Below, one piece after another: positions 56,762 through 60,659 of a DNA stretch of 64,000 nucleotides. Origin of the DNA: a virus. Taxonomy: Duplodnaviria; Heunggongvirae; Uroviricota; Caudoviricetes. The position numbers and the translations under genes were made by a program. The DNA lies in the IMG/VR virus record IMGVR_UViG_2744054962_000001; one strand, 5' to 3'. The notes beneath the pieces are model-generated. The model was not told where the DNA came from. It searched no databases and was given only the letters and a program-made list of their open reading frames with translations. Within the stretch, counting starts at the first letter, position 1. Each line of letters opens with the position of its first letter.

Positions 56762-56779
56762 GCCTTGATAAACCATTTA

Positions 56780-56800
56780 GCCCCCTGGTGGGGCTTTTTT
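56780..56800 (+). terminator. Rho-independent terminator
   Basis: GCCCCC-TGGT-GGGGC followed by TTTTTT. Confidence 0.7.
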
Positions 56801-56842: not shown

Positions 56843-57307
56843 ATGTCCACAAAAACAGATTTGTCGAAAATCCCGTCTATCTCCGGAAACAACGGTTATT
56901 CGCTGCGCTGTCAGGAAGTGAAGATCAACGGCCATGAGGCCCATTGCAGCTATACAGTCTGCCAGCACACCATCCTCGCCTACAAAGAGAAGCGTCTCCC
57001 AGCGACATCGTTCCAGTCCTGCGCTGCGGCCATTGCTGCTGGAAAATGCCAGGCGCTGAAGATGATGGTCGAAGAGATCCGCAAAGGCGAACAGCTCTAC
57101 TTCATCGATATGGCTACGCTTATCAAAGAAGTGGAAGAGCAAAACGACCACGCCAGAACGCTTACCCGGAAGCGCAACACCATGACGATTCAACGCACGA
57201 AGAAAACAGAACCAGCCAAACCCGAAACCACGTCCACCGATTCACTGGCGCCTGTCACTGACGTGTACGCGGCACTCATTGAAGAAGCAACCAAAGAAAA
57301 CACATGA
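56843..57307 (+). CDS. Hypothetical protein (154 aa) with Cys/His cluster
   Basis: HEAHCSYTVCQH segment; start after terminator and promoter motif (track start 56765). Confidence 0.45.
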   Translation: MSTKTDLSKIPSISGNNGYSLRCQEVKINGHEAHCSYTVCQHTILAYKEKRLPATSFQSCAAAIAAGKCQALKMMVEEIRKGEQLYFIDMATLIKEVEEQNDHARTLTRKRNTMTIQRTKKTEPAKPETTSTDSLAPVTDVYAALIEEATKENT

Positions 57308-57341: not shown

Positions 57342-58664
57342 ATGGAAAAACTGATCGCCCTAAAGCACAAGCTGGATGCCATAAAAACGATGGGAACCAA
57401 CGCCAAAAAAGAGGCGCTGGCCAACCTTGATAAATTTGAGCAGAGCATGGTCTCGCTAATGCTCAACCCATTCATTCGATTCGGTGTGAAGAAGTACAAA
57501 GTGGTCGAGCCACTCGATACTTCCGTACCCATCGACCAGAAGGTAGTCGAGCTGCTGGAGAAGCTGGCGGCGCGCGAACTGACCGGGAACGCGGCCATTA
57601 CTGCTGTTGAGTCTATCGTGGCGTCAATGTGCGCCGATGGGCAGGACGTGTTCCGTCGTTTCCTCTTAAAAGACCCAAAAGCGGGTGTTGGGATTAGCCT
57701 ATGCAACAAGGTTTTTGAAAATCCCATTCCGAAATTCGAGGTGCAGCTGGCGTCACCGTATAAAGAAAAAGGCGACAAATACCCCTTCAAGCCAAACCCT
57801 AAAGCAAAATGGCCTATGATTGGCAGCCTTAAGCTCGATGGTTTGCGAGTAATTTGCGAGGTTATTGTTGACGAAGAAGAGGTTAACTTCCTTTCTCGTA
57901 CTGGTAATCCAATCACGTCTCTCGATCACCTAAAGCCAGCCATGCTCGAATTAGGCAAACTTTCAGGCCACAAACACATCTTCTTCGATGGTGAAGGAAC
58001 TGCCGGTTCATTTAACCAGTCCGTATCTGCATTGCGCAAAAAGAACGTGCAGGCAATTGGCGCTATTTATCATGTTTTCGACTTCTTCCTACCGGAATGG
58101 CGGGCACAGGCTAAATCCAAAGAGTATGCAAAGACAGGTATGAAGCTGAAAGAGCGCCTGGCTATTCTCGTGGCGTTGTTCAAAAACGATCGCAGTGAAG
58201 GCTACGCACAAGACATTCACCTGCATCCGTTCTATATCATCCATAGCCACGAAGACTTCATCGAACGCTTCATGAAACGCCTGGACGATAACGAAGAAGG
58301 GGAGATGGGCAAAGATCCGAACTCTGTTTACGAGTTTAAACGTACCCGCAGCTGGTGGAAGTTAAAAGACGAAGATTCAGAAGATGGTGAAATTATCGAT
58401 TTTGAGCCGGGCGATCCGGACTCTGGTTTTGCCAACACGCTTGGAAAAATTGTTATTCGTCTTGAAAACGGCGTCATCGTTCGTGCGAGCGGTATTAAGC
58501 ATAAATATCTGGACGAGATCTGGAACAACAAAGAGAAGTACCGTGGTCGTATTGTTGAGGTTCATTGTCACGAGAAAACACTGGATGGCAGCTTACGCCA
58601 CCCCCGACTGAAATGGCCGCGTTGCTTACGCGATACAGAAGATCGAATCGGAGATAAAGAATGA
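57342..58664 (+). CDS. ATP-dependent DNA ligase
   Basis: Adenylation motif I KLDGLR; motif III-like FFDGEG; GGAGG RBS. Confidence 0.8.
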   Translation: MEKLIALKHKLDAIKTMGTNAKKEALANLDKFEQSMVSLMLNPFIRFGVKKYKVVEPLDTSVPIDQKVVELLEKLAARELTGNAAITAVESIVASMCADGQDVFRRFLLKDPKAGVGISLCNKVFENPIPKFEVQLASPYKEKGDKYPFKPNPKAKWPMIGSLKLDGLRVICEVIVDEEEVNFLSRTGNPITSLDHLKPAMLELGKLSGHKHIFFDGEGTAGSFNQSVSALRKKNVQAIGAIYHVFDFFLPEWRAQAKSKEYAKTGMKLKERLAILVALFKNDRSEGYAQDIHLHPFYIIHSHEDFIERFMKRLDDNEEGEMGKDPNSVYEFKRTRSWWKLKDEDSEDGEIIDFEPGDPDSGFANTLGKIVIRLENGVIVRASGIKHKYLDEIWNNKEKYRGRIVEVHCHEKTLDGSLRHPRLKWPRCLRDTEDRIGDKE

Positions 58665-58840
58665 TGCTCGGCTGGATGATTGCATTTTTAGCAGTTGGTT
58701 TTTTCATAGGTATTGTGGTGATGTCCAGTTGCATTAATGACTACATTAAAAACGGTGTTATAGAAAGACGCGGTCGCATTTATCGCATTGTAGAAATAAC
58801 CAACACCGTGAAGGAGATTAAGGATGATCGTATTAAGTAA
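58661..58840 (+). CDS. Small single-pass membrane protein (59 aa)
   Basis: ATGA overlap with ligase stop; GGAG RBS; TM helix then RGRIYRIVEIT motif; paralogue at 59036. Confidence 0.45.
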   Translation: MMLGWMIAFLAVGFFIGIVVMSSCINDYIKNGVIERRGRIYRIVEITNTVKEIKDDRIK

Positions 58841-59039
58841 ACGGGAGAAGGAAACGCTTCATGAAATCAGTAAGTGGCCGGAGTTCCCTGAGTACTGGAA
58901 GCCTAAAACGCGAGCTAAGTTAGAGCGGTTAGGGTTGGTTGCAAACGTTTCTGAAACGAAGTGTTCGGCCAACTACCAGTTAACTGATAAAGGGAAAGTA
59001 TTGCTACAGCAATTAGTAGAATCAGGAGTGTTAAAATGA
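58824..59039 (+). CDS. Hypothetical protein (71 aa)
   Basis: AAGGAG RBS; overlaps 3' end of 58661..58840 in another frame. Confidence 0.45.
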   Translation: MIVLSKREKETLHEISKWPEFPEYWKPKTRAKLERLGLVANVSETKCSANYQLTDKGKVLLQQLVESGVLK

Positions 59040-59188
59040 TTCCATACATCTCATTAGCTTTTATGGGTGGCTTCCTTATCGGCTTCGGCATCTGTCGTGA
59101 TTTAATTAAGCAGGAACTTAAAACCAAAACACTGTGCATCGGAAAGCGTGTGTATCGGGTAGTTCATGAAACAAAGGTTAGAAAATGA
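59036..59188 (+). CDS. Small single-pass membrane protein (50 aa), paralogue of 58661..58840
   Basis: ATGA overlap with upstream stop; AGGAG RBS; TM helix then GKRVYRVVHET motif. Confidence 0.4.
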   Translation: MIPYISLAFMGGFLIGFGICRDLIKQELKTKTLCIGKRVYRVVHETKVRK

Positions 59189-59475
59189 GCAATTTAACTT
59201 CTTGGGACTGGTGGTTGGCCACCTATTTCTTAGCGGCCGGAGTCGCATTCGCCTTTTACGTAGGTCAGTTAGTCGTAAAACTGTTGCTGATTAAATTTGC
59301 CAGTCATAAACGTATCGATGATGGTCTGTGGCGTCTTGGCACCCTGGTGGAAACTCGCTACGGGCAACTTAAGGAGAACGAAACCATTACTATCCAAGCG
59401 AAACGATTCACTGCCACCATCACAAGAACACCTAGTCGTAGAGTGGCCTTGATCAAAAAAGTCACAACCGAATAA
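59185..59475 (+). CDS. Small membrane protein (96 aa)
   Basis: ATGA overlap with upstream gene; N-terminal TM helix. Confidence 0.45.
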   Translation: MSNLTSWDWWLATYFLAAGVAFAFYVGQLVVKLLLIKFASHKRIDDGLWRLGTLVETRYGQLKENETITIQAKRFTATITRTPSRRVALIKKVTTE

Positions 59476-59483
59476 AAACATAT

Positions 59484-59506
59484 CGATAAGTATTTACTTA
59501 CTTATC
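59484..59506 (+). promoter_or_regulatory. ATAAGTA-family motif (GATAAGTATTTACTTACTTATC)
   Basis: Palindromic copy at start of the non-coding leader that precedes the tRNA cluster. Confidence 0.45.
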
Positions 59507-59865
59507 CTTTGTGTATAAGATGACTTTGTTTTCGTTGAGACGCGACTGTTTGAACTTAAATACAAGTGCAAACGAAGAAGTCTATCTGGCAGTAGCCTAA
59601 TAAGCCAAACACCAGCGAGGTCAGTTTCCAGCCTCGTTACCGAAATGGGACACACTGAGCGAGTGTGATTGCAGAACGCAGGAGGGAACATTCATGTTCC
59701 CTCCGATGAAGTAACAGAATGGGCGGTTGGTATATTTTCAACTCCATATGACTCCCGGATTCTTAGCCACTGACCGCCCATCCTGTTACGTCATTTTGTT
59801 CAATTATGTCGTTTATACTGGGTTAAAAAGCGGCGACGTAGCCCGGCTGGTATGGTTAGCCAGCA

Positions 59866-59987
59866 CACAACGTTGAGGCCATTACATTTTTATCAATTCT
59901 AAGGTTCTATTCACAGAGATACCGGCGAGCGTTGATATGTAACATGTTGGGCAAACATTCAATCGGAGTAGTGGCCTCAACGTTGTG
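59866..59987. repeat. Perfect 16-bp inverted repeat pair (CACAACGTTGAGGCCA / TGGCCTCAACGTTGTG) separated by 90 nt
   Basis: Arms at 59866-59881 and 59972-59987 are exact reverse complements. Confidence 0.8.
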
Positions 59988-60253
59988 AAGACGGGATTGT
60001 TGTGTAGGTTTAACCACTGTTGCCATTGGTGCCTGTTTTCACAACAAATGATTCCATACATCACATTGTATAAATTACAAAGTAGGTGCTGTCCTCAGAA
60101 ACATCATCTACTTAAAGATTTTGCCTTCTACTATTGAGCGAAGTCGAAAGCGTCTGGCACTAACGAAAAGTGCAAGTAGCGGTGCGTTTCATGGCAGAAA
60201 CTAAACCGTCGCGATTGGCACTGTTGAGTAATAAATACTGGCAGTGCTGAATT

Positions 60254-60328
60254 GATGGTGTAGCTCAGCGGTAGAGCAGTTGGCTGTTAACCAACTGGTC
60301 GGTGGTTCGAATCCACCCACCATCGCCA
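60254..60328 (+). tRNA. tRNA-Asn (anticodon GTT)
   Basis: Cloverleaf: acceptor GATGGTG/CACCATC, D-arm GCTCAGCGGTAGAGC, anticodon loop CTGTTAA, T-loop TTCGAAT, encoded CCA. Confidence 0.85.
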
Positions 60329-60330
60329 AT

Positions 60331-60406
60331 GCCGGTTTAGCTCAGTTGGTAGAGCACCTGCCTTGTAAGCAGGATGTCAGCGGTTCGAATCCGTTAACCG
60401 GCACCA
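60331..60406 (+). tRNA. tRNA-Thr (anticodon TGT)
   Basis: Acceptor GCCGGTT/AACCGGC, anticodon stem CCTGC/GCAGG with loop CTTGTAA, T-loop TTCGAAT, encoded CCA. Confidence 0.85.
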
Positions 60407-60414
60407 ACACAATT

Positions 60415-60501
60415 GGAGAGTAGAGAGCATGGTGCTCAAGCGGTCTTGAAAGCCGTCCCATTGCGCAAGCGATGATGGTTCGATTCCATTACTCTCCGCC
60501 A
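60415..60501 (+). tRNA. tRNA-Ser (anticodon TGA), class II with long variable arm
   Basis: Acceptor GGAGAGT/ACTCTCC, anticodon loop CTTGAAA, variable arm with TTGCGCAA hairpin, T-loop TTCGATT, discriminator G plus CCA; anticodon stem has two G-U pairs. Confidence 0.65.
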
Positions 60502-60503
60502 GA

Positions 60504-60581
60504 CACAGCGTTGAGCGGTTTGGCCTATTAATCAACTCGATTAAGACTCCGCTAACATAAACCAGACCGCTCAACGCTGTG
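60504..60581. repeat. Perfect 16-bp inverted repeat (CACAGCGTTGAGCGGT / ACCGCTCAACGCTGTG) directly after tRNA-Ser
   Basis: Arms 60504-60519 and 60566-60581, 46-nt spacer; arm sequence related to the 59866 repeat. Confidence 0.8.
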
Positions 60582-60659
60582 ATAGACAATTACGGCAGAC
60601 GTTCTTAACCATAGCTTGCTAACATCATAGCAACACTTTTTTTCAGCGCAAAATTCAAA

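Follow-up and report, generated by a model that had tools for sequence, protein, structure and literature searches.

Among the closest described counterparts of the proteins considered here are p1 and p16.7 of phage phi29, early membrane proteins which anchor phage DNA replication to the membrane; p16.7 carries an N-terminal transmembrane (TM) anchor, and its cytoplasmic part binds DNA and terminal protein (PMC4974454). We analysed a 64,000-nucleotide (nt) stretch of DNA from a virus of the Caudoviricetes (IMG/VR record IMGVR_UViG_2744054962_000001; the whole stretch is hereafter the window), in which an ATP-dependent DNA ligase gene is followed by four small genes, named A, B, C and D in this work. 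In this region the window shares 98.9% identity with plasmid pLF82 of E. coli LF82, 95.7% with Cyrano, the phage form of pLF82, and 81% with Salmonella phage SSU5, and it was therefore assigned to the SSU5/pHCM2 group of phage-plasmids. We are confident that the string forms the 3′ end of a DNA-ligase operon in the replication module of the SSU5/pHCM2/pLF82-type elements. Similar to p1 and p16.7, its products are small phage proteins encoded with replication genes, and A, C and D are predicted to share an N-terminal TM helix and a basic cytoplasmic part. The two systems differ in that the host of SSU5-type elements is Gram-negative, replication is not protein-primed and a DNA-binding-like fold is found only in the separate soluble protein B. 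As a tentative reading, A–D may constitute a small inner-membrane complex which, at the cytoplasmic face, tethers DNA or replication/repair proteins during lytic replication.

All four genes lie on the plus strand directly downstream of the ligase (57342..58664; Pfam DNA_ligase_A_M, E = 5e-13; phrog_114, E = 1.5e-124), which heads the coupled string and whose orthologues in Cyrano, SSU5 and pJN2-26 also carry the DNA ligase label. Gene A (58664..58840; phrog_4381, E = 2e-38; orthologue of SSU5_045) encodes a putative 58-amino-acid (aa) bitopic membrane protein, gene B (58824..59039; phrog_4054, E = 5e-45) a 71-aa soluble basic protein with a predicted winged-helix fold, gene C (59036..59188; phrog_6302, E = 8e-37; orthologue of SSU5_047) a 50-aa bitopic protein that is the usual partner of D, and gene D (59185..59475; phrog_4507, E = 8.5e-59) a 96-aa bitopic protein that represents the invariant core of the module. 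The initial annotation of the window, made from the letters alone, had pointed to two small open reading frames (ORFs) at 58661..58840 and 59036..59188, both absent from the ORF track, each starting with an ATGA overlap and a good ribosome-binding site (RBS), in a coupled string alternating with other small ORFs downstream of the ligase. Both are present and overlaps occur at every junction: the ligase stop codon (TGA, 58662-58664) overlaps a lineage-specific ATG at 58661, A and B overlap by 17 nt (58824-58840), and ATGA overlaps connect B with C (59036-59039) and C with D (59185-59188). The starts of A, B and C are each preceded, at a distance of 7 nt, by GGAG/AGGAG, that of D only by a weaker AAGG. 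One correction concerns the start of A. Its first codon is ATG only in the E. coli lineage and CTG or GTG elsewhere, while the second codon is ATG in all 15 homologous loci; because of this invariance the conserved start is placed at 58664, giving 58 aa and a TGATG overlap, as annotated for SSU5_045. The absence of A (59 aa from the upstream start) and C (50 aa) from the ORF track is plausible because both fall below the 60-aa default. Annotation of the sub-60-aa genes of the string across public records is likewise inconsistent: A is unannotated in Cyrano and several RefSeq records, C lacks an annotation in pHCM2 and in several records of Enterobacter and E. coli, and Klebsiella RefSeq records (e.g. 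L006, L008 and L016: 1575-1739) start A at an internal Met (54 aa).

A–D are very probably real, translationally coupled genes. They give full-length, whole-profile matches to PHROG 4381, 4054, 6302 and 4507, which contain the SSU5_045-048 orthologues and all carry the label 'unknown function'. The phage-plasmids pHCM2 (Salmonella Typhi), pMT1 (Yersinia pestis), pLF82/Cyrano and those of Klebsiella show the same gene order, overlaps and post-ligase position as the window, whose genes are thus members of these families; frame, start and stop of A–D are kept in Salmonella (SSU5, pHCM2), Y. pestis pMT1, Klebsiella, Enterobacter, Citrobacter, Kluyvera and E. coli. Conservation of the string extends over 16 plasmid/phage loci, 80 IMG/VR loci and further ones, and the overlaps are retained in every lineage, including a divergent one with the order ligase-X-D2. 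In diverged pairs, whose synonymous sites are near or past saturation, the ratio of nonsynonymous to synonymous substitution rates (dN/dS, Nei-Gojobori) was 0.08-0.21 for A, 0.03-0.14 for B, 0.09-0.22 for C and 0.05-0.14 for D, compared to 0.024-0.05 for the ligase at equal synonymous divergence. Between the window and SSU5, dS was 1.07 for the ligase and 0.99-1.18 for A, C and D; this shared divergence suggests that the small genes have co-diverged with the ligase under purifying selection three to five times weaker. Among 74 loci with adequate flanks in an independent IMG/VR sample, A, B and D were each disrupted once and no disruption of C was recorded, C being the search query in that sample. 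The small ORFs are thus conserved in every related genome examined, under purifying selection, and withstand the conservation check named in the initial annotation.

Homologues outside this group of elements were not detected. Searches of Pfam, NCBIfam, PADLOC and PDB sequences gave nothing significant for A, C and D; a word-indexed search of 5.8 billion proteins with the A, B and D profiles returned only SSU5-like elements, and the D profile, run exhaustively with HMMER against 1.84 billion representatives, likewise matched only such elements, 18 representatives in all. Scans of GTDB genomes and of IMG/VR with a joint profile of C and its divergent orthologue X (below) also found only SSU5-like elements and no informative foreign context. 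The genes themselves are already known, being listed as hypothetical in several public records and catalogued as PHROGs; our literature search turned up no publication dealing with the ORFs in pMT1 or pHCM2. What the present analysis adds is that A and C are paralogues, that the module has a core and an accessory part, that A is recurrently lost by a precise deletion, that B is most likely a winged-helix protein and that the name in use for D is wrong.

A duplication behind A and C, and the conserved motifs RGRIYRIVEIT (A) and GKRVYRVVHET (C), had been proposed in the initial annotation, and the pairwise alignments suggested there bear them out. BLASTP aligned A and C with 31% identity over 45 aa (E = 6e-5), and hhalign comparison of the two family alignments gave P = 2e-4. 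TM part and tail were shuffled separately, because hydrophobic composition can inflate such scores; the single-sequence, segment-preserving shuffle gave p = 0.002, and at the profile level none of 2,000 shuffles reached the observed score (z = 7.2, p < 1/2000), the tails alone still giving z = 3.5 and p = 0.007. The two proteins align in MAFFT without gaps from residue 1, with G12xxxG16 and R38-x-Y40-R41-x-V43 at identical residue numbers. Invariant positions comprise G12xxxG16, R35-R36-G37-R38 and Y40-R41-I42 in A, and G12, G16, C20, G36-K37-R38 and Y40-R41-V42-V43-H44-E45-T46 in C, so that a tail strand of the form G-(K/R)-R-(I/V)-Y-R-(I/V)-V is shared. Among 1,491 six-frame segments of the window the two motifs were the only pattern matches, and a six-frame hidden Markov model search found A and C as each other's best non-self match. 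Protein X (55 aa), encoded directly after the ligase in the divergent lineage of soil Enterobacter/Cronobacter, shares 21-23 identities in 50 positions with C (p < 2e-4) and is also related to A (p = 0.0002-0.003); judged by its sequence it is a clear orthologue of C that bridges A and C. Taken at the sequence level, A and C are almost surely genuine paralogues.

The similar layout that the initial annotation saw in 59185..59475 holds for D as far as an N-terminal TM helix followed by a basic tail; a sequence relation to A and C does not. BLASTP produced no alignment of D with either protein, hhalign probability was below 1% and profile shuffles gave p = 0.19-0.88. A by-eye match of a D hairpin (TITIQ-AK-RFTATITRT) to the A/C motif, which would make D a third paralogue, was dropped after profile shuffles of p = 0.8-0.9. 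Tandem duplication of an A-B unit into C-D was ruled out as well, since B and D are unrelated and no DNA repeat was found beyond two 16-nt RBS/start repeats described below. D is, with high confidence, a 96-aa single-pass membrane protein unrelated to A and C, and an evolutionarily constant member of the string. It is named 'C-type natriuretic protein' in many RefSeq and GenBank records (e.g. SSU5_048, P0095, P0103 and P0106). No natriuretic-peptide Pfam family matched D at E ≤ 1 and the Pfam field of the so-named homologues is empty; on sequence grounds the name is a propagated misannotation without support.

TM analysis agrees with the N-terminal helix anticipated for both small ORFs. The Kyte-Doolittle maxima over 17 residues were 2.59 for A (residues 5-21), 1.88 for C (4-20) and 2.15 for D (20-36), compared to 0.25 for B; A, C and D thus have a single strongly hydrophobic segment near the N-terminus, and B has none. 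Each helix contains small-xxx-small motifs, namely the GxxxG that is invariant in A and C and G19xxxA23xxxG27 in D. The N-termini of 4-10 residues are uncharged or acidic, and the tails carry net charges of +3 (A), +7 (C) and +6 (D); based on the positive-inside rule applied to these basic tails, an N-out/C-in orientation is predicted, with the tails of A, C and D in the cytoplasm. Conservation in the tails of A and C is at least equal to that in the TM helices. The AlphaFold2 model of D (predicted local distance difference test (pLDDT) score of 64) contains a TM helix (residues 6-40), a second helix (43-59), a β-hairpin (67-71/76-80) and a disordered basic tail; a fold search with this low-confidence model gave nothing above noise (best E = 2.4). 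At the end of its TM helix, A has a (M/T)-(S/L)-S-C sequence resembling a lipobox, and we considered whether A is a lipoprotein using as criterion a basic n-region together with a lipobox [LVI][ASTVI][GAS]C. This is unlikely: none of 12 homologues has a Lys or Arg in the N-terminal region, and a valid lipobox is lacking in the paralogue C, which has Ile or Leu at position −1 of the Cys, in the orthologue X, which has no Cys, and in D.

Protein B belongs to a different structural class. Its AlphaFold2 model (pLDDT 82; predicted template-modelling (TM) score 0.65) consists of three helices (residues 6-17, 27-35 and 55-67) and two strands (39-41 and 51-53), and the top 50 PDB matches in Foldseek were almost all of the MarR/SlyA/PadR/RosR type, with TM-scores of 0.6-0.76 and probabilities of 0.99-1.0, and an E-value of only 0.015. 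Many small uncharacterised phage winged helix-turn-helix (wHTH) proteins, and also TubR, were matched in BFVD. The second helix carries conserved basic residues (P27, K28, T29, R30 and K32). Sequence matches stayed below the curated thresholds (HTH_45, 13.7 bits with a cut-off of 25.5; EarA, 13.7 with a cut-off of 22), and PADLOC gave only weak matches to the wHTH domains of Csa3/CARF (E ~1e-3). On the strength of the model, B is most likely a winged-helix protein and probably binds DNA. The resemblance to MarR/PadR-type domains is at the level of the fold (TM-score ~0.7); B is a minimal 71-aa domain which lacks the dimerisation helices of MarR.

Comparison of lineages revealed a core and an accessory part of the module. 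The full ligase-A-B-C-D string is found in the clade of SSU5, pHCM2, pMT1 and the Klebsiella, Enterobacter, Citrobacter and Kluyvera elements. Among pLF82-type plasmids of E. coli and Shigella in PLSDB, 186 records contain C and only 76 contain A (110 of 186 deleted), and A is absent from 12 of 35 corresponding IMG/VR loci; depending on the sample, 34-59% of the E. coli copies have lost it. The 16-nt RBS/start sequence at the ligase/A junction (GGAGATAAAGAATGAT, 58650..58665, plus strand) recurs as a near-repeat at the A/B junction (GGAGATTAAGGATGAT, 58813..58828, plus strand), as seen when the window is aligned to plasmid pRHB23-C03_2; the spacing of the two copies, 163 nt, is exactly the stretch lost from A-less plasmids, and the deletion rejoins the start of B to the stop of the ligase. 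Some Klebsiella plasmids keep C-D with the ligase, A and B gone, the divergent lineage has ligase-X-D2 with its overlaps intact, and in L022-L025 a D homologue stands directly after the upstream ORF, the ligase, A, B and C all being absent. From this survey D emerges as the constant element, with C/X as its usual partner, A plus B as a clade-specific addition and A as dispensable.

D itself has also been exchanged. Two elements carrying X (L018 versus L020, 5900-6300) are 99-100% identical in helicase, primase and ligase, 87% identical in X and only 43% identical in D, with unrelated sequence beyond, and the recombination breakpoint lies inside the 3′ half of X; this allele switch places D at a recombination boundary between the conserved replication block and variable cargo. 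Two gene fusions were also recovered. One joins B and C in frame (P0161, L012 1725-2090; 121 aa, a cluster of 13 sequences) and is uninformative as Rosetta-stone evidence, since the RBS and start of C are retained. The other, a single low-coverage metagenomic variant (P0088, L112 1634-1933), joins residues 1-28 of A to full-length B and is compatible with the C-terminus of A and B both being cytoplasmic. A further candidate fusion, P0176, proved to be an artefact of an ISEcp1-blaCMY-2-delta-blc junction.

Expression of the string was assessed in published RNA-seq data of Cyrano. Misson et al. 2023 (PMC9928086) do not list CYRAN_37-39 (B, C and D) among the genes expressed in lysogeny; A has no RNA value because it is unannotated in Cyrano. 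Values in S1 Table of that study are given as log2(FPKM+5), FPKM being fragments per kilobase per million, so that 2.32 corresponds to zero. For overnight culture in lysogeny broth (LB) they are 2.45/2.66 for the ligase, 2.97/2.32 for B, 2.32/2.32 for C and 2.83/3.0 for D, and under other conditions the string reaches ~4-6 versus 3.6-4.3 for the ligase (PMC9928086). The expression sought in the initial annotation is thus seen in part: transcripts of B, C and D occur at a low level in some conditions and are near the floor in LB lysogens. In the plasmid state there is essentially no transcription of the string, as is the case for the repressed replication genes. Protein-level data or RNA-seq time courses of induction for an SSU5-like element were not found in the literature.

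Combined with these analyses, the tethering function was favoured because of the replication-operon context, the translational coupling, the basic cytoplasmic tails and the DNA-binding-type partner B, and because the string is co-regulated with the ligase and near-silent in lysogeny. A, C and D would be made with the ligase only once the replication/lytic genes are derepressed, and would insert N-out/C-in, with the conserved basic tails on the cytoplasmic side. C and D may then associate through their small-xxx-small TM motifs into an inner-membrane complex, in which A would act as a partly redundant duplicate; the basic tails of this complex and the putative DNA-binding protein B would jointly keep phage DNA undergoing replication or recombination, or else replication/repair proteins, at the membrane. 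The logic of holding at the membrane would be that of phi29 p16.7/p1. It is a rather doubtful step further to regard C and D, joined by A and B in the SSU5/pHCM2/pLF82 clade, as an unrecognised inner-membrane tether of lytic replication or ligation, that is, a p16.7/p1 analogue built from unrelated proteins. More speculative is a variant in which B would be a transcription factor that A keeps at the membrane in a switchable manner, with which the A-TM::B fusion would be compatible. Of the functions named in the initial annotation, a membrane-targeting role is plausible.

Several observations weigh against such a tether. No DNA-binding domain is recognisable in A, C or D, the model of D being of low confidence, and no homology of the string proteins to p16.7 or p1 was found in Pfam, PDB sequences or Foldseek. 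RNA of B-D exceeds that of the ligase two- to five-fold in some conditions, so the genes may not be strictly co-transcribed with it. D persists where no intact ligase is left (L022-25, pMT1, L009 and L109) and would thus be independent of the ligase, and A is dispensable in nature. The dN/dS values of the small proteins are three to five times that of the ligase, and D has undergone the swap to a 43%-identical allele; fast rates, swaps, gain and loss are more typical of genes interacting with the host or other phages than of replisome parts.

The main rival is a role as host-takeover modulators: through their TM helices, the bitopic proteins would bind a protein of the host inner membrane during lytic growth and block or divert its activity. 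Small bitopic regulators of this kind include MgrB, AcrZ and MgtS of E. coli and gp56 of SPO1, which have 30-100 aa and one TM helix, often with small-xxx-small motifs, and act through helix-helix contacts. The small size and single TM helix with GxxxG or glycine-zipper motifs would fit this role, as would evolution faster than that of the neighbouring enzymes, the lineage-specific gain, loss and duplication, the D allele swapping, the expression only outside stable lysogeny and the restriction of the families to one phage-plasmid group and its Enterobacterales hosts. We regard it as possible, with the evidence on the whole leaving it doubtful, since it provides no candidate target, shows no homology to a known modulator in library or PDB searches and leaves both the tight coupling to the ligase and the winged-helix partner unexplained. 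The string differs from MgrB, AcrZ, MgtS and gp56, to which it has no homology, in that conservation extends to a cytoplasmic strand motif besides the TM helix; the predicted cytoplasmic tails rank among the most conserved segments and are in this respect at least equal to the TM helices.

Superinfection exclusion or immunity, as suggested in the initial annotation, would require that the proteins block the DNA entry or development of a second phage, either in the lytic cycle in the manner of T4 Imm/Sp or at low expression in lysogens. T5 Llp, Cor of phi80/T1-like phages and T4 Imm and Sp are likewise small, phage-encoded and membrane-associated, and often evolve fast. Llp and Cor are lipoproteins encoded beside receptor-binding genes and act in the envelope. 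A–D resemble these systems in comprising small, duplicated, fast-evolving membrane proteins of a phage, with low but non-zero RNA in some conditions and D at the edge of a variable accessory region. We nevertheless consider this function unlikely, if conceivable in the lytic phase. In its usual prophage sense, which needs expression in the lysogen, it conflicts with the RNA data from LB cultures of LF82/Cyrano, where C has zero reads, B and D are at or near the detection floor and none of the three is among the lysogeny-expressed genes. The predicted orientation leaves just 4-10 residues in the periplasm, where known exclusion proteins meet the incoming phage, and places the conserved motifs in the cytoplasm. 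Unlike Llp and Cor, C and D lack a valid lipobox, and the motif in A is not accompanied by a basic n-region in any homologue. SSU5 has a separate, annotated Cor exclusion gene beside its tail-fibre genes, whereas the string is part of the replication operon, and A, C and D match no family in PADLOC or Pfam.

Timing of lysis by holin-, antiholin- or pinholin-like proteins is very unlikely. Single-TM small proteins with charged C-termini would suit it, and D has a weak match to the holin family phrog_2359 (E = 0.019), but this match is not significant and covers the hydrophobic helix alone. SSU5 carries a complete holin-endolysin-spanin cassette together with the Cor gene ~12 kb upstream of the string, which itself lies in the replication operon, and A–D are retained in pMT1, which is not known as a lytic phage. 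Even less likely, and indeed highly improbable, is a toxin-antitoxin-like addiction cassette in which A, C and D would be membrane toxins and B would act as DNA-binding antitoxin or autoregulator. A gene for a small hydrophobic peptide does adjoin one for a small putative DNA-binding protein on a low-copy plasmid, and Cyrano has several toxin-antitoxin systems elsewhere, but the string is not expressed in the plasmid state as an addiction module requires, B is absent where X-D or D alone is kept, natural deletions drop B and keep C-D with no sign of lethality, and no toxin-antitoxin family is matched. The explanation of A and C as chance ORFs, or as non-coding sequence, within the 3′ region of the ligase, which could appeal to their length (50-58 aa) and to the missing annotation of A in Cyrano and several RefSeq records, is effectively refuted by codon-level conservation, namely dN/dS of 0.08-0.22 in pairs with dS of ~1-2, together with frame, start and stop kept across genera, the reciprocal paralogy of A and C and the finding of a disrupted A at a single locus among 74.

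SSU5-like phage-plasmids are common in clinical E. coli and Klebsiella, in Salmonella Typhi (pHCM2) and in Y. pestis (pMT1), and their resistance and virulence cargo directly adjoins the string. The annotation of hundreds of plasmids can be improved by recording four very probably real genes, a conserved C-D core, a dispensable duplicate A and a baseless name for D. Small phage membrane proteins without an assigned role are a common category in phage genomes; should those described here turn out to organise membrane-bound replication, or to act on a membrane protein of the host, they would provide a compact new tool and a handle on a poorly understood lytic programme.

The borders of the string are a hotspot for cargo insertion (L004 2392-3811; L015 2160-3660; L109 176-3000; L024 10263-12264). 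Y. pestis pMT1 (L004) carries caf1R, the F1 capsule regulator, ~500 nt after D, and IS100 truncates its ligase. In a Citrobacter plasmid D is cut short by an ars operon; in E. coli plasmids ISEcp1-blaCMY-2-delta-blc has taken the place of the ligase and A, with the Blc signal peptide fused in frame to B; and another lineage has Tn3/beta-lactamase near the string.

The gene order in SSU5 is helicase, primase, two unknown ORFs, ATP-dependent DNA ligase, SSU5_045-048, tRNA genes, more ORFs and DNA polymerase. The ORF preceding the ligase in the window (56843..57307, plus strand; orthologue of CYRAN_35/SSU5_043; phrog_5055, E = 1e-90 over residues 1-154 of 155) is probably the first gene of the ligase/string transcription unit, and the RNA level of its CYRAN_35 orthologue resembles those of the ligase and the string. 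It is listed from a TTG at 56765; its orthologues and phrog_5055 begin at the Met at 56843 (154 aa). Inside the extra 5′ part of the TTG-started ORF, before 56843, a terminator-like hairpin (AGCCCCCTGGTGGGGCT followed by a T run, 56779-56795) probably ends the preceding, more highly expressed gene. A promoter scan detected no sigma-70-like site inside the string. On its 3′ side, 10 nt past the stop of D, lies an AT-rich hairpin on the plus strand (GATAAGTA-TTTACT-TACTTATC, 59485..59506), which every aligned lineage retains, L022 showing a compensatory change (TATGTA/TACATA), and which is the probable 3′ boundary of the operon; it was not called by the terminator scan, having too few G-C pairs.

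Between the stop of D and tRNA-Asn, the window has ~760-780 nt (59489-60252) without an annotated feature, directly upstream of three tRNA genes. This stretch is more conserved than the small genes, being 80-95% identical in 664 plasmids, even in a lineage whose D is only ~32% identical. An Rfam scan of the stretch after D gave no family at threshold and only weak tmRNA-like matches at 59476-59651. RNAalifold analysis of nine lineages predicted 139 base pairs, 24 of them with compensatory double changes, including a 19-bp long-range stem (~59866-59884 with 59972-59990) and, near 59683-59702, a hairpin whose loop varies in length. The stretch looks like a large structured RNA or the leader of the tRNA operon. 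Further downstream, the equivalent of CYRAN_40 (60201-60589, minus strand), a 'moron' of Cyrano expressed at 15 times background in lysogeny, lies antisense to tRNA-Asn/Thr/Ser (60254-60501); the most likely source of its signal is the tRNA/leader transcript and not a protein-coding gene.

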